Counted from the first letter of the stretch, positions 26,974-61,278 are shown. The stretch: 64,000 nucleotides of DNA from Candidatus Woesebacteria bacterium (GCA_050115675.1 JASFQB010000001.1:96616-160615), one strand, 5' to 3'. Notes: generated by a model not told the origin, from the sequence alone. Made by a program: numbers and translations.

Positions 26974-27981
26974 TTGGCAAAAAAACATAGGTTGGTAAAT
27001 GTGGCAAAAGATGCATTTATTGACATTCATAAAACATGCAGTAGCTTAGAATCGCCAGTAGACGATAAAGATTTAATCTATCAGTGCTTATTTAGGCTAT
27101 TCTCTTTTGCGCCTAGTATTTATATCAAAAAAGGTAAAGTCGTGCAAAAAACTTGGCTTGGTAGTAAGTATCATGAAGTAGAAAATGACGAATGTGTAGA
27201 ATTTTATCAAGATTGTTTGCTGGATATATACAACGAGCAAAAGGCATATTTGGCTGAGCGTTATTACAAGAATAACACCAAGCTGTTTAGCGACCTTCAT
27301 AAAATATTTTCTGGTTTTTGCTGCAGGGGCAAGATAAAAAATATTGCTGGTAGACCATATTTGGTGACTAGAAGCAGTAAAATCTTGCTAGAAATTAAAG
27401 AAATATCGCCAAGTTTTGCCCAGTTGGTTCACGAAAATTTTCATTATATGCATACTCCACGCAACAACGGTCCATGTTTGGGCTTATTTTTGCAGGATAA
27501 TAAATTGCCCTTTTCTGTTTTAGCGATAGAAAAGGTGGACAGGCATTATAAAAAAGCAGCGCTTGCATATTATGGAATGTCAGCAGACCATTGTTATGAA
27601 GTAACTAGGCTGTATAATGTCCATAGCTCGCCCTATAATACCTCAAGTCTAATGTTGTCTCAGGCCTCTACATATTTAAAAAATAACGACAGATATTGGC
27701 AGTCGACAATCTCAACTTTTATGCCTAGCTATGCAACAGGAGGTTCGATGTTTGGCGGTGGTTTTGAGCAAATATTGTTTGCGAAGCCTTGTAGGCATTT
27801 ATATCAAGAAACGCCCCAAGGTATGGCAACGAAAACCAACCGTACAGTCACTGCAAGAAATTGCTTAAGTAACATAACTAAAATTATGCCAGCCATAGAG
27901 TTAATTTATGCACGCGAAAGGAAATGCTCTGTTGTACGCAACGACCAGCAAATCTTGGTGAAAAAATCGCCATCAGGGTAG
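26974..27981 (+). CDS. Hypothetical protein.
   Basis: Long ORF, no family recognised. Confidence 0.4.
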   Translation: MAKKHRLVNVAKDAFIDIHKTCSSLESPVDDKDLIYQCLFRLFSFAPSIYIKKGKVVQKTWLGSKYHEVENDECVEFYQDCLLDIYNEQKAYLAERYYKNNTKLFSDLHKIFSGFCCRGKIKNIAGRPYLVTRSSKILLEIKEISPSFAQLVHENFHYMHTPRNNGPCLGLFLQDNKLPFSVLAIEKVDRHYKKAALAYYGMSADHCYEVTRLYNVHSSPYNTSSLMLSQASTYLKNNDRYWQSTISTFMPSYATGGSMFGGGFEQILFAKPCRHLYQETPQGMATKTNRTVTARNCLSNITKIMPAIELIYARERKCSVVRNDQQILVKKSPSG

Positions 27982-28007
27982 CGTATTGCTTAGTTTTATT
28001 GTACAAT

Positions 28008-28598
28008 ATGAAAGTGCAACGTAAATACGTCTATTTTACCACCATTAAAAACATCGATCAGCACATAGAAGTTGATCGTCAAGTTAATACTATTTTTAAG
28101 CGACACAGATGTCAGCTTATTAATGATTGGTGGCTAAAAGATTTTCCTTATGGCATAGACATTGTCGATAGACGAATAGAAAGTCAACTCTCTGACGCTC
28201 AAAGTGATTTAGGACAGGCAGAGTTTGCGGTTGTTGATTTTAGTATTAAATCTCGCTGGGCGTTTTTTAAGTCTATGTTGGCTGTACAAAAGAAGATTCC
28301 GCTATTGTGCATTGTTAAAAACAATCAAATCGAAAACGTTCCAGAAATGATATTAGCTAGCCAATCTGGACTTATGGCGGTTGCATCCTACGATACTATA
28401 GACGACCTTGAACCTCAAATAAAGCGTTTTCTTAAGCAAACCGGCACACTTAAAAAGCGATTTAATATAATGCTCAACACGACATCGCTTAAGCAGTTGG
28501 AAACTCTATCAGAAGAGCTAGAGTTGCCAAAAGCTGATGTTGTACGCAGCCTTATCGCTGACCACTACAAACATTTTTCTCAAAAACCTAAGCGTTAG
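28008..28598 (+). CDS. Hypothetical protein.
   Basis: ORF. The start is chosen at MKVQRKY and is uncertain. Confidence 0.35.
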   Translation: MKVQRKYVYFTTIKNIDQHIEVDRQVNTIFKRHRCQLINDWWLKDFPYGIDIVDRRIESQLSDAQSDLGQAEFAVVDFSIKSRWAFFKSMLAVQKKIPLLCIVKNNQIENVPEMILASQSGLMAVASYDTIDDLEPQIKRFLKQTGTLKKRFNIMLNTTSLKQLETLSEELELPKADVVRSLIADHYKHFSQKPKR

Positions 28599-49363: not shown

Positions 49364-49665
49364 CCTCTTTCGTGTATGACGAAAAGACTGTTATATAAAA
49401 ACATGAAATTGTAAAAAAGTAAACCCCTTGCTGCAAGATGACAAGGGGCAGGTTGTTCTACTCTGGCGGGATACCTCCGATTGCCATCATAAGCTGTGTA
49501 AATCGGTATACAATGGCATCTTCGCGACTTGTTGGAGTATCGCTTGGCTCGTTGCTTTGCGTGGTTGGCGGGTTTGTGTTTTGGTCGGCTTGATCTTGGT
49601 TGGCCTTGACCTGCTGCGCCATGGTTTTTCCTTTCGCCCGAAAGAACTGTTTTATAATACAACAC

Positions 49666-50970
49666 ATGACACGTAAAGCAAAAGTTTTTGCATTAGTAGA
49701 TTGCAATAACTTTTTTGTAAGCTGCGAACGAGTTTTTAGGCCAGACTTGTGGAACAAGCCCGTGGCTGTTTTAAGTTGCAATGATGGCTGCATTGTGGCG
49801 CGCAGCAACGAGGTAAAACAAATTGGAATTCCTATGGGTTCGCCTTTGTTTAAGGTTAAAGATGTTGTGGCTGCAAACAATATAACTTTGTTTTCGGGCA
49901 ATTTTGCTTTGTATGGTGATTTTTCGCAACGAGTGGTGCAAATTCTGCAATCTGCCTGCCCTGATGTTGAGGTGTACTCTGTTGATGAGTCGTTTTTAGA
50001 GATTTCTGCTTTAAATATTGATAATTATCACGATTGGGCAGCAAAACTCAGAGCGAACATTTTGCAATGGACAGGCATACCTGTATCAATAGGGGTGGCG
50101 CCTACAAAAACTTTGGCAAAGGCGGCCGCCGAATTTGCTAAAAAGACTTTTTTGCCAGATGGCGTGCATGTTTTGTGTAGTGACGGGCAAATTTCGCCTA
50201 CCGAGGCTAAAAAGCGCCATGATGATCTTTTAAGATGGCTGCCGATAGATGATGTGTGGGGTGTGGGGCGCAGGCTGGCTCCAGTTTTGCGGCAAAAGGG
50301 CATATCTACGGCCCAGCATTTAACAGAGGTGGGCGATAAATGGGCTCAGCAGCAGCTAAGTATATCTGGTGCCAGGACTGTGTGTGAGCTAAGGGGTGAG
50401 TCGTGCATTCCAATGACAAAACAAGAGCCTCAAAAAACTATAGCCAGCACAAGATCTTTTGGTCATACCGTGCGTAATTATTACGAATTAGAAGGAGCGA
50501 TCGCTACTTACGCAGCTCAGGCAGCGGCAAAGTTGCGTAATCAAAACAGTGTTGTAAGTGCGATTTTGGTGTTTTTGCGAACAAGTAAAAAATACGACAA
50601 AAAATATGGTGCTAGTATTGTTGTGCAAATACAGCAGCCTAGTGCAGACACAGGGGCAATTATTGGTGCCGCATTGAGCGGTTTGGCCTCTATTTACGAT
50701 AAAGATTTAGCATATAAAAAGGGTGGAATCGTGCTGTTGGATTTAGCGCCTGCGACTGCATGGCAGATGTCTTTATTGGATCAAAATCCAAGTAAAATTG
50801 ACCAGCAAGTTGCATTGATGAGCGCCGTAGATACACTAAACCAAAAATACGGCGTGCGTCTTGTGCAACATGCTAGCGAACAGATTGCCGGAAAAAGTTG
50901 GCAAAGCAAGTCGCAGCTGTGTAGCCCTGCGTACACCACAAATTGGCTCGCATTACCAAAAGTTGGGTAA
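49666..50970 (+). CDS. umuC: Y-family DNA polymerase (UmuC/DinB-like).
   Basis: FALVDCNNFFVSCERVFRPDLWNKPVAVLSCNDGCIVARSNE...IGIPMG (palm catalytic Asp/Glu motifs), SVDESFLE. Confidence 0.85.
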   Translation: MTRKAKVFALVDCNNFFVSCERVFRPDLWNKPVAVLSCNDGCIVARSNEVKQIGIPMGSPLFKVKDVVAANNITLFSGNFALYGDFSQRVVQILQSACPDVEVYSVDESFLEISALNIDNYHDWAAKLRANILQWTGIPVSIGVAPTKTLAKAAAEFAKKTFLPDGVHVLCSDGQISPTEAKKRHDDLLRWLPIDDVWGVGRRLAPVLRQKGISTAQHLTEVGDKWAQQQLSISGARTVCELRGESCIPMTKQEPQKTIASTRSFGHTVRNYYELEGAIATYAAQAAAKLRNQNSVVSAILVFLRTSKKYDKKYGASIVVQIQQPSADTGAIIGAALSGLASIYDKDLAYKKGGIVLLDLAPATAWQMSLLDQNPSKIDQQVALMSAVDTLNQKYGVRLVQHASEQIAGKSWQSKSQLCSPAYTTNWLALPKVG

Positions 50971-51624: not shown

Positions 51625-51700
51625 GGCCCCTTCGTCTAGTGGTTAGGACATCAGGTTTTCATCCTGAAGATCGCGGGTTCGAGTCCCGCAGGGGTCACCA
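51625..51700 (+). tRNA. tRNA-Glu (anticodon TTC at 51658-51660).
   Basis: Acceptor GGCCCCT/AGGGGTC, anticodon stem tcagg/cctga with loop ttttcat, T-arm GCGGGTTCGAGTCCCGC, encoded CCA. Confidence 0.85.
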
Positions 51701-53249
51701 TAAGAGAATTTTTTGCTTCCAGTAATTGGAAGACCGGCGACACCCCTGTAAAAAGGGGTGTTTTTTGATTTCGACCAACCAAATCTGCATAGGTTGGTAA
51801 TGTACGGAAAATCAGGCCGAAAAACTGGGCTTTTTTGACCGGGTCAATCTGTTTTACGACCAGTTCATCCAAGTTTTCGACGAAATATTTTACGCGGGCA
51901 ATTACCCGGTCTATACTCATTGGCTTCTTAGCTTCCATCTTCATCCTTTCGAGTGACAGCTGCTTAATTTGTTTATCTACGTCCTCTAGCTCTTCATTTA
52001 GGTGCTGCTGAGCCGAAGGGGCGATTGTAGCGAAGTTTTTGGCCATGCTGCGAGCCTGCTGCGTAAGGTCATTGATCTTACTGTCGATTACGGCGATTTG
52101 CGCATCATGATATGCCACACGCTTTTCATAAGCATCTTTAATGGCAACGAACAGCGTGTCGATGTCTTGCTGCGAAAATTCCAAACCGCCAACAAATTCT
52201 AGCACGCGCATTTCGAGCTCTTCTTTTTTAACGCGGAACTTATGTTCGCGCTTGTCGCAGTGGTAATACGAATAGTAATTGCCGGTTTTGCCGCGAGAGG
52301 CACTGCCAAGCAGTGGCTTGTTGCATTCCGGGCACATTACAAAATTCTTGAATGCAAAGTCCGAGTGGCGCGTGCCTTTTGGCGTGGCATTTTCCGGCGC
52401 TACATTATCCGTAATCGCAATCTTGTTGTTGGGCATTTCTATAATTACTCGCTTGCCCTTGTTGGCGCGGTTGAATAGGTCGATTGAAACAATCCCATCA
52501 AACATACATTTAACCGGCTGGCCTTGTGTCCATTTCTCGACATTTATGCCTGCATAGATTGGATTGCGTACCATTTTCCAGAGCTTCTTTTCGTCCAGCA
52601 GGGCTGGCTCGGTTCGCCTAACAATGCGCGACCTGTCGTCTTTTGCGCGGCGTAGCTGCGGCCGTCCGCGATAACCCATATCGTTCAACTTCTTGGCAAT
52701 CTCGCGGTCGCTAAATTGGCCGCTGGCACGAAGTTCAAATAGCGCAACAATGTATTTAGCTTCCTGCGGGTGCGGCTTTAATACCATACGCTTGCCGTGT
52801 TGTGTTTCTACTTTTTCGCTCACTAGGCCATACGGTGCGCGCCGCATCCAATAGCCCATTTGCGTGTAGCGGATTTCGGCACCAATGACGCGGCTCAAAA
52901 TATCTCGCACTTCGTCTTTTGACCGTTCGGCTTCCAGCATTTCCGATTTGCGGCTTGGTGAGTATTTGCTCCATTTGTATTCCTGCCCGAGGTGCGCCAG
53001 TGTGTTGACCTGCTCGTGGCTAATGACGCCATAGGTATCAACGAGCGTCACGCGGCATTCTTCTTTGCTGGCCGATTCCAAGAACACAAAGAACTTTTTG
53101 ATGGTGATTCCCCGGTTATCGGCGTAGCGTTCGATCTGCTCTTTTTGCGCTTCCGGCGAGTCGCCGTCGGTGCCTTGCTTGGTGGTCGAAACACGAATCG
53201 CGGCAACTGCATACTTACTATTTTGTGGCTGCATTTTCTCCCTCCTCAA
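51651..53249 (-). CDS. Large serine recombinase (phage-integrase type).
   Basis: N-terminal resolvase catalytic domain (AVAAIRVSTTKQ), recombinase domain, zinc ribbon (CPECNKPL...YYHCDKREHK) and a coiled-coil. The last ~16 codons overlap the 3' half of tRNA-Glu. Confidence 0.85.
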   Translation of the reverse strand: MRREKMQPQNSKYAVAAIRVSTTKQGTDGDSPEAQKEQIERYADNRGITIKKFFVFLESASKEECRVTLVDTYGVISHEQVNTLAHLGQEYKWSKYSPSRKSEMLEAERSKDEVRDILSRVIGAEIRYTQMGYWMRRAPYGLVSEKVETQHGKRMVLKPHPQEAKYIVALFELRASGQFSDREIAKKLNDMGYRGRPQLRRAKDDRSRIVRRTEPALLDEKKLWKMVRNPIYAGINVEKWTQGQPVKCMFDGIVSIDLFNRANKGKRVIIEMPNNKIAITDNVAPENATPKGTRHSDFAFKNFVMCPECNKPLLGSASRGKTGNYYSYYHCDKREHKFRVKKEELEMRVLEFVGGLEFSQQDIDTLFVAIKDAYEKRVAYHDAQIAVIDSKINDLTQQARSMAKNFATIAPSAQQHLNEELEDVDKQIKQLSLERMKMEAKKPMSIDRVIARVKYFVENLDELVVKQIDPVKKAQFFGLIFRTLPTYADLVGRNQKTPLFTGVSPVFQLLEAKNSLMVTPAGLEPAIFRMKT

Positions 53250-53737: not shown

Positions 53738-54667
53738 ATGACGAAATTACCAAAACTAACCAGAAAACAAGGCGAAATACTAGAACTGCTCTACAGGTTC
53801 AGATTCCTAAACCGCATCCAGATACAAGCACTACTACTGCACAAAGACCCGAAAACCATTAACCTGTGGTTGCGTGATCTGCGCTCCAAAGGCTACGTCG
53901 AATGGATATACTCAACCCACTTCGCCGAGAAGACCAAACCAGCTGTCTACTACCTCGGACTAAACGGTGTACGATATCTGCGTACGCTTACTAGGGAGGA
54001 AGAAGTAACGGGCGACGATCCAGAGACCGACGAGGGCGGCGACCCTAAGCCTACACCAGCCTACCCGCCAGAAGAACTGCGCAAACGCTACAAAGAGCCA
54101 ACCCGCAGTCAAACCTATATTGACCGCTGCATCCTGATAGCAGACTGCGTACTTGCTCTAGACCAAGCGAGCTTTGACAACCGGATGCAAGGCAAAAGGC
54201 TCAGCTATTACATTCAGACAGAAGCAGACTACTTGCTTGAACGCAGCTACTACCATTTTGTACTGGATATTGACGACGAACTAATCCACCCGCACCTTTT
54301 GTTTTGCCAGGACAAAACAAACAAAGACGGCGAGGAAATAACCCTAGAAAGCTATATCCTGGAAGTATTTGATCCAACCCTGCCGCGCTACCGTATGAAA
54401 AAGCGCCTTGGTGATTACGTGAAGTTCCTGGATGACGAGGGTGACACGTGGAAAGAGCAGACGGATACCGACAAGCTGCCAGTTATCCTATTTGTCTACC
54501 CCCGAACAACTGACCTCATTTATGCGAAACGAAGAACACGAAAACTCGTTGCCGACGCGTGGTATTGGGAGGATGACGACACCGAAAGGCCACGGGTGCG
54601 GTTTACGACGATGGAGAAGTTGAAACAAAGCGGCTTGTTAGCGAAGGAGATTTGGGAGCAAGCCTGA
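53738..54667 (+). CDS. Replication-relaxation (Replic_Relax) family protein.
   Basis: N-terminal wHTH LTRKQGEILELLYRFRFLNRIQIQALL...LRDLRSKGYVE typical of PF13814. Confidence 0.55.
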   Translation: MTKLPKLTRKQGEILELLYRFRFLNRIQIQALLLHKDPKTINLWLRDLRSKGYVEWIYSTHFAEKTKPAVYYLGLNGVRYLRTLTREEEVTGDDPETDEGGDPKPTPAYPPEELRKRYKEPTRSQTYIDRCILIADCVLALDQASFDNRMQGKRLSYYIQTEADYLLERSYYHFVLDIDDELIHPHLLFCQDKTNKDGEEITLESYILEVFDPTLPRYRMKKRLGDYVKFLDDEGDTWKEQTDTDKLPVILFVYPRTTDLIYAKRRTRKLVADAWYWEDDDTERPRVRFTTMEKLKQSGLLAKEIWEQA

Positions 54668-54786: not shown

Positions 54787-56316
54787 ATGTCACGGCTTCC
54801 GCAACCTGGTGCAGATGATGGTGTTTGGGGTGATGTCCTCAACGACTTTTTAGGCGTATCCCACAATAGTGACGGTACGCTTAAAAGCAGTGCCCTGTCT
54901 TCCAAGGCAAATGACACAGCCACCGTACACAACACAGGCAATGAGTCCATAGCCGGAGTAAAGACCTTCACCTCCAGCCCTGTAGTTCCTACCCCCACAA
55001 CCAACACCCAAGCAGCTAACAAACAGTACGTAGACAATACAGTATCTGCCGGTGCGCCAGACGCCACTACGTCCGCACCAGGCCTAATACAACTAGCCGG
55101 TGACCTAGGCGGCAGCGGCACCATAGCAACTGCCCCTGTCATATCCGACAGCGCAGTAACAACCAGCAAGATAACCAACGGCGCCGTCACCACAGCCAAG
55201 CTGGCTACTGGCAGCGTAACTACCAACGAGATAGCCGACGGCACCATAACAGACACCGACATTAGTGCCACGGCCGCCATAGCCAAAACCAAACTGGCAA
55301 GCCTAAACATCACAGATAGTGATGTAAGCGCTATATCCGAAAGCAAAGTTACCAACCTGACAACCGACCTAGCAGGCAAAGAACCAACGATCACTGCCGG
55401 CACCACTGCTCAGTACTACCGTGGCGACAAATCGTGGCAAACCCTGGATAAAACAGCCGTAGACCTAGCCAATGTAGACAATACCAGCGATGCAAACAAA
55501 CCAGTTTCTACCGCCACCCAAACAGCCTTAGACGCCAAGCTGGACTACGCCACCGCCCCCACCGGCTACATTCGCGTGCCCGGCAACCCCAAGTTCGGTA
55601 CCACTGACTTCTATGTCATGAAGCACGAAGCCAAGAACGTCGGCGGCGTACCTACCTCCCAGGCAGCCAGTACGCCATGGGGCAGTATCTCCCAGGCCAG
55701 TGCCATAGACGCAGCTAGAAGCCTTGGCCCGGGCTACCACCTGATAACCGAGGCCGAATGGATGACCATTGCTTACAACGCCCTGTACGTAGGCAGCAAC
55801 TGGACCGGCGGCAGTGTTGGCTCAGGAGCGCTCTTCTCCGGCCATAACGACAACAACCCGGGCAACGCGCTTGACGCTGATACCAACGACGCCAACGGCT
55901 ACTACGGTACTGGCAACGTGAGCCCCAGCAACCAGCGCCGGACATTAACCCTCAGCAACGGAGAGGTCATCTGGGATCTAGCCGGTAACGTCTGGGAATG
56001 GACTGATGCCCAGATCATTGGCAGCGACCAGCCGACTGTTGCCAGCCCCGGTTTTGCCTGGCGCGAGTTTACCGCCATTACCAAGTGGGGAGCGCTGAAC
56101 TATGCCCTGCCTACGGGCAGAGGCTGGAACTCCAGCCAAGGCCTCGGCCAGATCTATTCCGACGGCACCAGCACCAATACGACGCTGTACGGCTTCATCC
56201 GCGGCGGCGGCTGGGGCCAAGGCAGCGACGCGGGCGCGTTTTCGCTCTACTTGAACCACACGCCGTCGTTCACGCACGCGGCCGTCGGGTTCCGGGTTGC
56301 CAGGAGTATTCTGTAA
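54787..56316 (+). CDS. DGR target protein: tail-fibre-like N-terminus with a C-terminal FGE-sulfatase / C-type-lectin-fold domain carrying the variable region.
   Basis: N-terminus paralogous to 11476..11994. C-terminus GYHLITEAEW..NVWEWT..RGGGWGQGSDAGAF..GFRVARSIL is an FGE/CLec fold. The last 118 bp match the TR with adenine-specific differences. Confidence 0.8.
   Translation: MSRLPQPGADDGVWGDVLNDFLGVSHNSDGTLKSSALSSKANDTATVHNTGNESIAGVKTFTSSPVVPTPTTNTQAANKQYVDNTVSAGAPDATTSAPGLIQLAGDLGGSGTIATAPVISDSAVTTSKITNGAVTTAKLATGSVTTNEIADGTITDTDISATAAIAKTKLASLNITDSDVSAISESKVTNLTTDLAGKEPTITAGTTAQYYRGDKSWQTLDKTAVDLANVDNTSDANKPVSTATQTALDAKLDYATAPTGYIRVPGNPKFGTTDFYVMKHEAKNVGGVPTSQAASTPWGSISQASAIDAARSLGPGYHLITEAEWMTIAYNALYVGSNWTGGSVGSGALFSGHNDNNPGNALDADTNDANGYYGTGNVSPSNQRRTLTLSNGEVIWDLAGNVWEWTDAQIIGSDQPTVASPGFAWREFTAITKWGALNYALPTGRGWNSSQGLGQIYSDGTSTNTTLYGFIRGGGWGQGSDAGAFSLYLNHTPSFTHAAVGFRVARSIL
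56189..56306 (+). repeat. DGR variable region (VR).
   Basis: 118-bp alignment to 57463..57580 shows 19 mismatches, of which 16 fall at TR adenines. Confidence 0.8.
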
Positions 56317-56345: not shown

Positions 56346-57360
56346 ATGACGAAACAAATGTCTGAGAGCATGCATCTTCAGCGCGCGGAGCGCGCATCCT
56401 CGTTGTTCGACCAAGTTGCCAGCTTTGAAAACCTCTACGCCGCGTACCAGGCGGCGGCCCGCGGCAAGCACGACCGGGTCGCTACGCTACGCCACGATTT
56501 GCATGCCGAAAAGATTTTGTGGCGGTTACGCTGGGAGCTACTGAATGGCCGGTACCGCCACGGCAAGTACCGGCGGTTTACGATTGTCGAGCCCAAGGCG
56601 AGGGATGTTAGCGCCGCACCGTTTACCGACCGCATCGTTCACCATGCGGTTGTCCAAGTGGTAGAACCGCTATTTGAGCGCGGCTTTATATATGACAGCT
56701 ATGCTTGCCGCCGCAGGAAAGGCACGCACCAGGCGGCTTTGCGGTTGCAGCATTTTCTGCGCTCTGCATCAACATCTATTGGTCATACAGGACGGTTGTA
56801 TGTGCTTCGTGCCGATATCCGGAAGTTTTTTGCCCGTATTGACCACGACGTGCTCAAGGATATATTGCGCCGCAAGCTCCCCGATGCCCGATTGCGGGAG
56901 CTATTGGGCCTGATTATTGATTCATTCTCCGAGATTGTGCCGCAAACGCCGCAGGCGGAATCCTCTCTCTCGATCTGAACGCGGCTTGCCGATAGACAAC
57001 CTTACCTCGCAGCTTCTTGCTAACTTGTACCTCAACGAGCTCGACCAGTTCGCAAAGCATACATTGCGATCACGCTATTACATACGGTATATGGATGATT
57101 TTATTATCCTGCACCCGGACAAAAGGTATCTTCGAGAGGTGTTGGCATCTTTACACCAGTATGTTAACCAAAATTTGCGGCTTGAGTTACATTTCAAGAA
57201 GACCAATATTCATCCATTTTGTGACTACGAGCGTTTTGTGGGTTACGAACTAGGCTTGTATCACCGGCGGCTGGCCAGGCCGACAGTACAGCGTTTTCGG
57301 CGGCGGTATAAGAGGCTGCAACTCCGCGACCCCGCTGCCGCCGATGACAGTTTGGCTTAG
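56346..57360 (+). CDS. DGR reverse transcriptase. Its frame is broken near 56961-56978 (frame 0 -> frame +1) at a (TC)4 tract.
   Basis: RT motifs EPKARDVSAAPFTDRIVHHA, DGR-specific LPIDNLTSQ (I/LGxxxSQ), YMDDFIIL. RBS aagggga upstream. The first part ends at TGA 56976-78 and the RT continues in the 56917..57360 frame. Confidence 0.8.
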
Positions 57361-57462
57361 TTTACCGCTTACGCCCATTTTGCCCATGCCGATGGATTAC
57401 TGCGGACGTTTCGGACCAGAGAGGGCCGACCATAGATATGCACAAGAAAGAGATAAATAACC

Positions 57463-57580
57463 ACGGTTTCATCCGCGGCGGCAACTGGAACAACGGCAGC
57501 AACGCGGGTGCGTTTACGCTCAACTTGAACAACACGCCGTCGAACACGAACACGAACATCGGGTTCCGGGTTGCCAGGAG
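57463..57580 (+). repeat. DGR template repeat (TR), AAC-codon-rich.
   Basis: TR reads ...aac tgg aac aac ggc agc aac..aac ttg aac aac..aac acg aac acg aac atc ggg ttc cgg gtt gcc agg ag. VR differs almost only where TR has A. Confidence 0.8.
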
Positions 57581-57780
57581 CTTGGCTCCAAGGCCTGTAA
57601 GGGCCGGCAGGGGTGCTACCTTGGTTACGGCCGGTAGCAGCGTGCTTTCAAAGATCTCCCGTTTGCCTCTGTCCTGGCCGGTGCGTTTATGCTGCGGCCG
57701 AATACGAACGGGCCAGCCGTGGCGGTATTATGCCGATTCTGTTGGCCCGGCCCTTCGGGGTACGGTGCGGGCTGGGTGTC

Positions 57781-58122
57781 ATGGATGACCTGATCGTATT
57801 CCGCAAGATGTACGAATACCTATCCTGGTTACGGCCCAGCGTTGAACGCTTCGCGCGGATGCACCGTTACGGTCTAGGGAACGAGATGGAGCAGTCAGCG
57901 CTGACGGTACTTCGTCACATAGTTAGTGCGAACTTTGCTGCGGACAAGCTGCCTGCCATCGGGCGGGCTTTAGTGGAACTTGAGGTCTTGCGGATATATC
58001 AGCGCCTTACTTATGATTACAAGTTGCTTAGTGGCCGCCAGTTTACTCATGCGAGTGCGCTGCTTGATGAAATAGGGCGGCTACTGCGGGGTTGGCATAA
58101 AAGCTATCGCGGTCCTCGCTAG
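57781..58122 (+). CDS. avd: Accessory variability determinant (Avd), a four-helix-bundle protein.
   Basis: 114 aa. Pattern MDDLIVFRKMYEYLSWLRPSVERFAR...LVELEVLRIY...ALLDEIGRLLRGW closely mirrors Bordetella phage bAvd (LIVERYERVISYLYPIAQSIPRKHG...AEVGRILGSW). Confidence 0.75.
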   Translation: MDDLIVFRKMYEYLSWLRPSVERFARMHRYGLGNEMEQSALTVLRHIVSANFAADKLPAIGRALVELEVLRIYQRLTYDYKLLSGRQFTHASALLDEIGRLLRGWHKSYRGPR

Positions 58123-58815: not shown

Positions 58816-59946
58816 ATGGCCAAACCCATAGATCCTCAGCTAAAACAAGAAATAATGACTGCCGTCTCCAGCGGTATGACCCAACTGGAAGCCAGTCGCC
58901 TCTATGGCGTCAGCTCCAAGACCATTAGCACTTGGTGTCGTCAGGATGTGATTGGTAGTGATAAAAATTATATAGCTCAAATTAACAAACTCAAACGAGA
59001 GTTGGACAACGCCTACCGTGTCATTGGTAAGCTGTCAGCTCATACTGACCGCCCAAAAGGCTAGCCGGCCCTGGAGGAGGTCGAACCGGGCTTTAAGCGG
59101 CAAATGGCTAGCGCTGTGGGTATTGGCCGCACCAGCTTGTACAGTCATTCTACAGTTCAATCCAGCAAAGACCTTCAAGCAATCCGGGAATTGCAAGTCG
59201 CTCATAACCAACATCCGCTATACGGCGTTCGTAGGCTCGCACTGCACATGGGCTGGAGCGAAAACAAGACCCGGCGGATTCGTCGCCGTGCCGGCGTGGT
59301 AGCGGTCAGGCCACGCAAAAAGTACCGTGGTTACGGTGGCAAACCTGAGATTGCTACACCCGGTAACCATCTGCACGTCTATGCCCTGTTCAAGGACGGT
59401 TCCAATCCGCAAAAAGGCATGGATCACAGTCTCATGACCCAAGAAGCCAATGCATGGACGCAAGATTTTACATATTTACGTATTCGCTCAGGCATGTTTT
59501 ATCTGGCGTTGGTCATGGATCTTACGACCCGTAAAATCCTGAGCTGGAAGCTTGGCACTAACCATAGTGCCAGTCTGACACATATAGCGCTCATCCAAGC
59601 GCTTAGAAACAACCCCGGTCCATCGATTCTACATAGTGATCGCGGTAGTGAATATCTTAGTGAGCGCCATCAATCTACCTGTGTTAGGTTTGGCATCCGG
59701 CTCAGCGCAAGCAAACCGGGATCGCCCTGGCAAAATGGCTACATGGAACGATGCATTAAAAGTATTAAGGAAGAGCTCGGTAACCTCGCTGCTTACCGGA
59801 ACATTGACGAGTTGTATTTTGGCGTTGCCAGCGCAATTGCCTATTACAACAACGACCGTATTCACTTGGCTCTCAAAACCACACCGACGGCTTACGCCGC
59901 CGGTTTACGGAGTCGAGACGGGGTGTTCGGGGAAAAGGGAACTTGA
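58816..59946 (+). mobile_element. IS3-family insertion sequence. OrfA (HTH, 58816..59064) and OrfB (DDE rve integrase, 59104..59946) are in the same frame, separated only by TAG at 59062-59064.
   Basis: OrfA HTH (MTQLEASRLYGVSSKTISTW) with a leucine zipper. OrfB DDE core (D in VMDLTTRK, D in HSDRGSEY, E in GYMERC). The frame arithmetic (59104-58816=288) shows a single in-frame stop rather than a -1 frameshift. Confidence 0.75.
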
Positions 59947-60396
59947 CATAGACTCAATGCGCCGCATCACTTCGCAACTGTCGTTTTGTGACAAAATGTT
60001 GAGCGAGCCTTCGTACAGTATATTCCGGTCAAGAATAGCAACTTTGCGGTGATGATTGCCGGTATATAGAACCTGCACGCCCATGTGTTGCAGCTTAGAT
60101 ATCGCCTCGTGGGCGTCATCTTGCCATCGACCTTCGTCGTGAGTGCGGGGATCGCGGGTATTGATAGCTATGCGCACCCTGCGGGATTTTAGCTTCTCTA
60201 ATGTCGGCAGTAACGTCTTGAGCCGACGATTTGTTATAAACGGGCACTCAATAACAACCTCGCTATGGCAACTCGCCAGGTCTTTCATAAAAGCCGGGTA
60301 AAAAGTATCTTGATCGTAGAGCTTTGAGCTAAGCAGATCAGCCGGAGCCGCCGAACGGTTGAATAGCCTAAACATGGTTAATCTCCTTGTCAGCAA
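59905..60396 (-). CDS. PLD-superfamily HKD nuclease-like protein (single HKD motif, Nuc-like).
   Basis: HxK(x)4D(x)6GSxN motif in NHHRKVAILDRNILYEGSLNI. The 3' end overlaps the IS3 right end. Confidence 0.6.
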   Translation of the reverse strand: MLTRRLTMFRLFNRSAAPADLLSSKLYDQDTFYPAFMKDLASCHSEVVIECPFITNRRLKTLLPTLEKLKSRRVRIAINTRDPRTHDEGRWQDDAHEAISKLQHMGVQVLYTGNHHRKVAILDRNILYEGSLNILSQNDSCEVMRRIESMSSSLFPEHPVSTP

Positions 60397-60644: not shown

Positions 60645-60908
60645 ATGAATACGTATACAGCCACCGTTATCAAGACAGGAAATTCATATGCATTGCGCGT
60701 ACCTAAAAAGTATGTTGAAGACGCGCAGTTAAAGTCGGGGCAGAAAACTTCTATTGCCTTACCTTTGCCCGAGCCGACTCAAAATCGTGAGAAAATACAA
60801 AACATTCTTCGCCAGTTGCAAGAGGCTGGTGCATATAAAGATGTCACCGATCCCGTGGCATGGCAGCGCGAGATACGTAAAGATCGCCCACTGCCCGGAA
60901 GAGGATAG
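60645..60908 (+). CDS. vapB: AbrB/MazE-fold antitoxin (VapB-like).
   Basis: Swapped-hairpin motif VIKTGNSYALRVPKKYVE. Lies immediately upstream of a PIN toxin. Confidence 0.7.
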   Translation: MNTYTATVIKTGNSYALRVPKKYVEDAQLKSGQKTSIALPLPEPTQNREKIQNILRQLQEAGAYKDVTDPVAWQREIRKDRPLPGRG

Positions 60909-60915
60909 GCTAGTC

Positions 60916-61278
60916 ATGATTATCCTTGACTCAAACATCTTTATTTATCTTGCGAGTGGCGTGCTTGATCGAAAGGTTATTAGCGATAAAGAAATTGCAC
61001 ACGCAAGTATTACGAAGATTGAATGCTTGGGCTTTTCGCGCATCCATGCAAACGAGCTTTTGTTACTCGAAGCACTTTTTGGTGAATCGTATGACCTGCC
61101 ACTTACTGTAGGTGTTGTAAGACAGGCAATACAGTTACGCCAAGCCAAAAACATTAGTCTGGGAGATGCCATTATAGCCGCAACTGCACTTGAGCACGGC
61201 TATGAGCTGTGGACGGCAAATATAGATGACTTCGCCCACATTGAAGGTCTGCGCGTCCACAACCCTCTTCAGCGTTAG
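60916..61278 (+). CDS. vapC: PIN-domain ribonuclease toxin (VapC).
   Basis: MIILDSNIFIY (first Asp). Conserved acidic residues in ..ECLGF.., ..DAIIAATA.. and ..NIDDF. Confidence 0.75.
   Translation: MIILDSNIFIYLASGVLDRKVISDKEIAHASITKIECLGFSRIHANELLLLEALFGESYDLPLTVGVVRQAIQLRQAKNISLGDAIIAATALEHGYELWTANIDDFAHIEGLRVHNPLQR

Follow-up and report, generated by a model that had tools for sequence, protein, structure and literature searches.

A dinucleotide tract at a frame break in a Woesebacteria retroelement reverse transcriptase, and probable repeat-tract phase variation among its Patescibacteria relatives

Localized hypermutation in prokaryotes is classically represented by two systems, diversity-generating retroelements (DGRs) and simple-repeat contingency loci, which have been handled as separate. 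Contingency loci are exemplified by the poly-G genes of Campylobacter jejuni, by poly-G hmbR and hpuAB and CTCTT-repeat opa in Neisseria, and by the tetranucleotide-repeat lic and mod genes of Haemophilus. Tracts of this kind are hypermutable at roughly five to six dinucleotide units or more, or as homopolymers of at least eight to nine. Here we describe a DGR in a 64,000-nucleotide stretch of DNA from Candidatus Woesebacteria bacterium (GCA_050115675.1, JASFQB010000001.1:96616-160615; hereafter "the window", to which the coordinates of its features refer), whose reverse transcriptase (RT) gene changes frame at a TC tract of four units. We think it probable that repeat slippage switches the RT throughout the group of related retroelements, and that the copy in the window is a contracted, out-of-frame and decayed member of this group.

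The N-terminal part of the RT gene (56346..56978, plus strand) is read in frame 0 from an ATG at 56346 through the motifs up to 'YVLRADIRKFFARIDH' and 'LIIDSF' and on to ...QAESSLSI, where it meets a TGA at 56976-78. This fragment is identical to a public protein (P0001, 210 aa, PVI21_00900) from a Candidatus Woesebacteria metagenome-assembled genome (MAG). The C-terminal part (56971..57360, plus strand; RSERGLPIDNLTSQ...YMDD) lies in frame +1; this frame has no stop between 56914 and a premature TAG at 57358-60, and its translation includes ...SRSERGLPIDNLTSQ...YMDD.... The break falls on a TCC(TC)4 tract at 56961..56971 (plus strand), in which (TC)4 itself occupies 56964-56971 after the TCC. 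A preliminary description of the stretch had placed the frames and the break in the same way, and both were right. It had further proposed that the frame would be repaired by one added TC unit or by the deletion of one nucleotide; an additional unit does give a continuous ...AESSLSRSERGLPIDN... protein, (TC)5 being the in-frame state, and single-base deletions do so as well, except for loss of the last C, which makes a TGA. The repaired RT matches Pfam RVT_1 (4.8e-16) and is 55–62% identical to full-length RTs that adjoin bAvd genes and pairs of template repeat (TR) and variable region (VR). It keeps YMDD, and its motif 4 reads PIDNLTSQ, with Asp for Gly. DSYACR and PI(G/D)N are 295 nt apart (mod 3 = 1). 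Because both flanks are homologous to those of relatives, the frame error can be narrowed down to the 10 nt that separate a conserved GAA from a conserved CGA, that is, to the tract. The flanks GGAA-TCC(TC)n-GATC are common to the window and to relatives with (CT)9 (locus L001), (CT)17 (L166) and (TC)11 (L171).

Repeat tracts are classic sites of indel error, and the species is apparently represented by a single underlying sample, such that the real genome might have (TC)5 and an intact RT. This explanation, which the preliminary description had entertained as a sequencing error, is very unlikely. Over 6.6 kb no base differs between the contig of the NCBI/JGI MAG and a Logan assembly made independently from run SRR11713588 (100% identity over 6,633 bp, break included), the remaining long open reading frames (ORFs) of the window are intact, and the RT gene carries a nonsense codon and a Gly-to-Asp substitution, described below, that indel error does not explain. 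A dinucleotide tract of four units is not error-prone for short reads.

The closest relatives of the RT are 55–70% identical and are encoded mostly on Saccharimonadia-type and other Patescibacteria contigs. As judged from these sequences, the group is made up of DGR RTs of Patescibacteria (the Candidate Phyla Radiation, CPR) in which one loop is encoded by (CT)n or poly-G. The loop is located between RT motif 3 (...LRADIxKFF.SIDH...IIDSY) and motif 4 (GxPIGNLTSQ). Comparison with related genomes, which the preliminary description had called for, showed that the homologous loop holds (CT)9–17 or G11–12, and that the (CT)n alleles have the same flanks as the window (GGAA..(TC)n..GATC). Alleles in both wrong frames are found. 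Out of frame by +1 are, together with the window, the (CT)9 alleles L001 and L002, L003 with G11 and L168 with G12, and out of frame by +2 are the (CT)17 alleles L166 and L167, L170 (GCA_002793885.1) with (TC)15 and L060 with G12. Alleles in frame are L165 with (CT)7T(TC)17, L171 with (TC)11 and L169 with G11. Many relatives are truncated in this same loop, with tails that start just past a run of Gly or of Ser-Leu.

Length polymorphism at the tract is seen between otherwise almost identical loci. L168 and L169, from sibling runs, align over 3,660 bp with no mismatches and a single gap, which is one G in the tract, and the in-frame L165 differs from the out-of-frame L166 over 3,170 bp by one mismatch and a 13-nt gap in the tract. 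Clusters formed at 90% identity mix truncated and full-length members with identical flanks, and also contain length variants that stay in frame (P0150 vs P0151, P0124 vs P0149). In a census of the group, members with a repeat-encoded run in the loop were in frame in 14 cases and out of frame in 20, and 14 of 34 is close to the one-third expected under random phase. Without such a run, 20 were in frame and about four out, the window being among those four. The census pooled several protein-search lists; lists obtained with N-terminal queries are by themselves unsuited to in/out ratios, only short proteins being among the matches listed, with an apparent bias towards targets of similar length. 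As a control, 157 more distant DGR RT loci were checked, and none was broken in this segment; these loci came from scans with the group alignment, for which the matches listed were almost all distant RTs of 38–46% identity. A scan of viral contigs with the N-terminal fragment of the window's RT gave no match closer than 43% identity.

The part of the gene past the tract appears to be maintained in the out-of-frame relatives, which on this evidence are not pseudogenes. Between L001 and L166, both out of frame, dN/dS past the break is 0.05 (144 codons; 57.8 synonymous and 20.2 non-synonymous differences), and within the 90% clusters, out-of-frame and in-frame alleles have identical ORFs downstream. 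L001 and L002 derive from two samples, and both have (CT)9 out of frame. A comparison of the two over 1,855 bp shows 17 differences, every one at a VR position that corresponds to a TR adenine, and each of the two VRs has no non-A mismatch to its TR. This pattern indicates that the DGR of L001/L002 diversified very recently despite the out-of-frame RT allele in the assemblies. Rapid switching, mixed populations or leaky expression would fit.

Leaky expression across (CT)9 or G11–12 would also be provided by recoding, in which ribosomal frameshifting or transcriptional slippage at the tract gives full-length RT as a form of attenuated expression, and the recent diversification of the L001 and L002 VRs is consistent with it. 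However, alleles in +1, in +2 and in frame occur in near-identical strains, as predicted by random DNA slippage and not by a single programmed shift. Besides the repeat itself, which varies in type (CT or G), there is no common slippery site or stimulator, and the conserved site with one fixed direction that marks a programmed shift is not found. The codon that precedes the stop in the window (AUC UGA A) bars re-pairing of the tRNA in +1, as judged from prfB-type sites; (TC)4 is too short for slippage by RNA polymerase; and the TAG would still truncate the product. We regard recoding as very unlikely and as the least probable of the explanations considered, slightly below a sequencing artefact. 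Splitting of the RT into two polypeptides was rejected in view of the in-frame single-ORF alleles in the same 90% clusters.

An AlphaFold model of an in-frame relative (P0005) has a mean predicted local distance difference test score (pLDDT) of 80, with pLDDT below 50 at the repeat-encoded residues 179–215. In-frame changes of tract length would be tolerated because the repeat-encoded loop is disordered in this model. As a side observation, some public contigs of the RT group appear to end in adapter, because P0009 and P0158 finish in ...EIGRAHV, which is the translation of an Illumina adapter (GAGATCGGAAGAGCACACGTC).

The mechanism that we propose for the group is that slipped-strand mispairing would alter the number of repeat units in the loop tract, and that everything from motif 4 onward, including YMDD and the C-terminus, would thereby be shifted in or out of frame. 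cDNA synthesis and adenine mutagenesis of the VR would, we infer, be turned off and on reversibly in this way, and the unstructured loop would accommodate those length changes that preserve the frame. A switch of the RT by repeat slippage had been put forward in the preliminary description for the window alone. For the RT group the idea is supported by length polymorphism, the occurrence of both phases, purifying selection and recent VR change, whereas the window's own copy is unlikely to work in this way, given its four units, the TAG, the Gly-to-Asp change in PIGN and three non-A mismatches between TR and VR.

Repeats were also observed elsewhere in DGR loci. In other Patescibacteria DGR RTs (38–44% identical), a second site in the loop after DSYACR...FLRS has (GA)11–17 or poly-G/G12 (L031 4382, L124 532, L125 3084, L152 4381, L043 with G12 and L178 3376). 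Here (GA)17 of L124 and (GA)11 of L031 are in frame and (GA)15 of L178 is out of frame. Of 120 short clusters listed, 26 truncated proteins were read, and most of these stop right after ERERER or GGG. Some target genes of relatives have poly-G in the 5´ coding end, with G11 in L060 (1963-1973) and G9 in L168/L169 (468-476). These tracts are placed between an upstream ATG and a transmembrane helix and are out of frame as assembled, and in L060 the flanks of the target tract (CCCCCAGC-Gn-TGCTAGCCA) are the same as those of the RT loop tract. The target gene may be phase-variable too, because of the poly-G in its 5´ coding end with flanks as in the RT tract. The density of long repeats is 0.34/kb in the RT segment versus 0.038/kb elsewhere in the fetched loci, an enrichment of about nine-fold that falls to about 4.5-fold without the loci fetched for their repeat.

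Further tracts were noted outside these sites. L153–L158 have G12–14 some 680 nt 5´ of the DSYACR codons, and long poly-G or CT tracts are present in genes upstream of the RT in L058, L088, L098, L038, L007, L030 and L027, the last with (CT)19. Distant DGR loci with long tracts upstream of the RT include DPANN archaeal ones.

With almost the same confidence as in the overall explanation given at the outset, we consider that the DGR RTs of Patescibacteria may be true contingency genes. Hypermutable repeats would reside in two disordered RT loops, one lying between motifs 3 and 4, with (CT)n or poly-G, and one after DSYACR...FLRS, with (GA)n or poly-G, and poly-G often also in the 5´ coding end of the target; targeted hypermutation and its target would be switched reversibly, and the window would be a locked-off, decaying example.

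The length of the tract in the window is, on its own, not beyond chance. TCTCTCTC occurs once against 0.48 expected and at least once in 34 of 100 shuffles, and the 64 kb contain nine other four-unit dinucleotide tracts and none that is longer. Neither a homopolymer of at least nine nor a long repeat tract is found anywhere in the 64-kb window. The non-random element is the coincidence of the tract with the frame break, together with its homology to the long tracts of relatives. These observations bear on the alternative of an ordinary pseudogene, according to which a random frameshift struck a chance (TC)4 and the repeats of relatives are unrelated low-complexity insertions. The tract is within chance expectation for the window, the loop differs greatly in sequence from one group member to another, and relatives with short tracts (P0002 and P0004, ...LSRSYGLPIGN) are stably in frame. 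On the other hand, both flanks (GGAA-TCC and GATC, followed by the codons for R-S-x-G-L-P-I) are common to the window and the (CT)9–17 alleles, and the Ser-Leu-Ser coding register is the same as in relatives. Moreover, the tract makes up ~10 of ~1,017 nt, and a random frameshift would hit it ~1% of the time. We consider a chance frameshift of this kind unlikely.

The window's RT has acquired more than the frameshift. Its second lesion, the premature TAG (57358..57360, plus strand), stands at a conserved Gln/Lys codon where all the full-length relatives encode a conserved Gln, or in some cases Lys, Ser or Asn, within ...SWQQFxAY.... Past the TAG, an in-frame remnant of the C-terminus (57361..57435, plus strand; FTAYAHFAHADGLLRTFRTREGRP, then TAG) matches the invariant columns F340, A342, Y343, F346, A347 and L352 of the group (motif F.AY..FAHA.GLL). 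The TAG is probably a recent nonsense mutation, because the 24 codons that follow it (FTAYAHFAHADGLL...), still conserved and in frame, continue to match these columns. The 24 C-terminal residues lost to the TAG are conserved in 25 of 25 full-length relatives, and the helices that they form are structured in the P0005 model. Reading of the TAG as an amino acid was rejected in view of the neighbouring Avd and HTH genes, which terminate in TAG. In addition, GAC (Asp) at 56995..56997 (plus strand) occupies the position of the near-invariant Gly of PIGN(L)TSQ (G218D); the other group members keep this Gly in 25 of 25 cases, as do 169 of the 175 motif matches from all fetched loci. In all, the gene has suffered a frameshift, gained a nonsense codon and undergone a radical substitution in an almost invariant motif, and more than one such independent lesion is typical of a pseudogene. 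The window also deviates at 16 of 169 highly conserved columns, compared to at most 10 in any other of the 26 sequences, and its three non-A mismatches between TR and VR compare with 0–2 in relatives.

The copy shares with contingency genes a tract inside the ORF at the point of the frame change. Its four units are, however, the shortest in the group and fall below the hypermutable length that the tracts of relatives reach, and the out-of-frame allele, otherwise intact in relatives, here carries the TAG and G218D. The window could nevertheless be a live phase-variable switch, in which (TC)4 and (TC)5 interconvert and the TAG-truncated RT with PIDN works when in frame. The homologous site in relatives acts like a switch, the RT is otherwise well conserved, with the sequence after the TAG still perfectly so, and the TR, Avd and target are intact. 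We judge a live switch to be about as unlikely as the chance frameshift. The tract is no longer than nine chance tracts in a window without any long one, the lost C-terminal residues are predicted to be helical, the Gly replaced by Asp is nearly always kept, and the TR and VR have begun to differ outside adenines. No in-frame RT allele of the window's species was found in public data, including among the 5.8 billion proteins of the protein database. The species is represented by a single sample, its two assemblies being identical, and tract-length polymorphism is seen in relatives (L168/L169 and L165/L166).

We therefore favour the view that the RT in the window is out of the switching regime. 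A change from (TC)5 to (TC)4, or contraction of a longer tract, would have left it one unit short of the in-frame state, and a tract of four units should seldom revert by slippage. The TAG, which removes the C-terminal helices, and the Gly-to-Asp change in PIGN would have been acquired since then, or in addition, and drift between VR and TR would have begun at non-adenine positions. A slip that restores the frame would not rescue the RT, because the TAG and the Asp would remain. In all likelihood the RT has been inactivated for good and the VR is frozen, and the inactivation appears recent because the rest of the RT gene is well conserved. Of the alternatives named in the preliminary description, a recently inactivated RT is the best fit.

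Several points weigh against this view of a dead copy in a once-switching lineage. Its place on the group's longest branch may partly explain the 16 deviations of the window. In a leave-one-out test restricted to strictly invariant columns the window has three unique changes, and intact relatives have 0–3; this strict test was not counted as evidence of decay, and the looser test on 169 columns is only suggestive. Three non-A mismatches are barely above the 0–2 of relatives. The main grounds for calling the RT dead are the TAG and G218D, with an impact on activity that is predicted from sequence, and the long tract in an ancestor of this lineage is deduced from homology of the flanks. A minority subpopulation with (TC)5 or with CAG may exist. 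Finally, a second RT encoded outside the 64-kb window might act in trans with the intact TR and Avd; within the 64 kb, no further RT motif of the YxDD type was found in any frame.

The DGR spans 54.8–58.1 kb of the window in the order target/VR, RT, TR, Avd. The target gene (54787..56316, plus strand; an ORF of 509 aa with the VR at its C-terminus) has weak Pfam matches to BppL_N, DUF5907 and FGE-sulfatase/C-type-lectin-like families, the FGE-sulfatase match of 21.6 bits being below the curated cut-off of 23.3. The VR (56189..56306, plus strand), the 118-nt stretch at the C-terminal end of the target that pairs with the TR, is 84% identical to the TR (57463..57580, plus strand, placed by TR/VR alignment). 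The preliminary description had counted three non-A mismatches between the two, and this is correct: there are 19 mismatches in 118 nt, 16 at TR adenines and three elsewhere (T>C, C>A, T>C). The gene for the accessory protein Avd (57781..58122, plus strand) is intact, and its product matches Pfam bAvd PF22296 (5.1e-18) over profile positions 1–106 of 107. An ORF of 116 aa overlapping the TR (57438-57788) was rejected as spurious; its translation 'GFIRGGNWNNGSNAGAF...' mirrors the VR. The locus thus has an RT of the DGR clade, an adenine-biased TR/VR pair and Avd, and lacks an intact translatable RT (frameshift at 56961-56971, TAG at 57358-60).

The DGR appears to sit on an element integrated at or next to a tRNA-Glu gene (51625-51700), because a large serine recombinase gene (51651-53249, minus strand) runs into it with its 3´ end; a gene for a Replic_Relax protein (53738-54667) comes next. 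Downstream of the DGR are an HTH gene, an IS3-family transposase directly after the DGR and HTH gene (58816-59946; orfA 58816-59064, orfB 59104-59946, with rve domains), a gene for a PLD-like protein (59905-60396, minus strand) and a PIN-domain gene (60754-61278). Immediately upstream of the tRNA-Glu and the element is a gene for a Y-family (ImpB/MucB/DinB-like) DNA polymerase (49600-50970). Elsewhere in the window, two ORFs on the same strand (26974-27981 and 27924-28598) share 58 nt and have no Pfam match; they represent either a split gene or two genes.

For this genome the conclusion is narrow, namely that the DGR is most likely dead with its VR frozen, and the interest lies mainly in the group-level phenomenon exposed by the broken RT gene. 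If a repeat switches the DGR RT, one hypermutation system controls the other. A lineage could halt diversification at a good receptor or adhesin variant and restart it later, and a population could freeze a useful VR variant while keeping a reserve of diversifiers. Such a switch would also help to explain many seemingly 'inactive' DGRs in metagenome surveys; active and inactive DGR classes have been reported (PMC8144416). Annotation would be affected as well, split RT genes being currently labelled as hypothetical fragments, as is P0001. In the open-access papers searched, no description of a phase-variable, repeat-bearing or frameshifted DGR RT was found.

In comparison with known systems, the locus resembles the DGR of Bordetella phage BPP-1 (bRT, Avd, TR and VR in mtd) and CPR DGRs in its motif 4 of the IGxxxSQ type and its YMDD, in the four-helix-bundle protein Avd and in an adenine-specific TR/VR pair at the C-terminus of the target. 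It differs in the order target, RT, TR, Avd and in the interruption of the RT gene. With programmed frameshifting (+1 in prfB, -1 in IS3, and dnaX) it has in common that one protein is divided over two overlapping frames, but a conserved slippery site or stimulator is absent, and both wrong frames as well as true in-frame alleles occur. The short wrong-frame tract together with the inactivating TAG and G218D is reminiscent of locked-off phase-variable alleles and pseudogenes, except that the ancestral long tract of the window is deduced from flank homology. The relatives are much like simple-repeat contingency loci, in that the length of an intragenic mono- or dinucleotide repeat shifts the downstream frame, in/out alleles occur in otherwise identical strains, and the downstream codons are under selection. 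Here, however, the gene that would be switched encodes a targeted mutator, the DGR RT, rather than a surface protein or a methyltransferase, the Patescibacteria hosts come from environmental metagenomes, and the tract in the window is under the usual hypermutable length. An analogy may be drawn with phasevarions, in which a repeat in an enzyme gene (mod of type III restriction-modification systems) toggles an indirect, population-wide activity. The DGR RT would likewise be a second-order switch, with localized hypermutation of one target gene as its output in place of genome-wide methylation.

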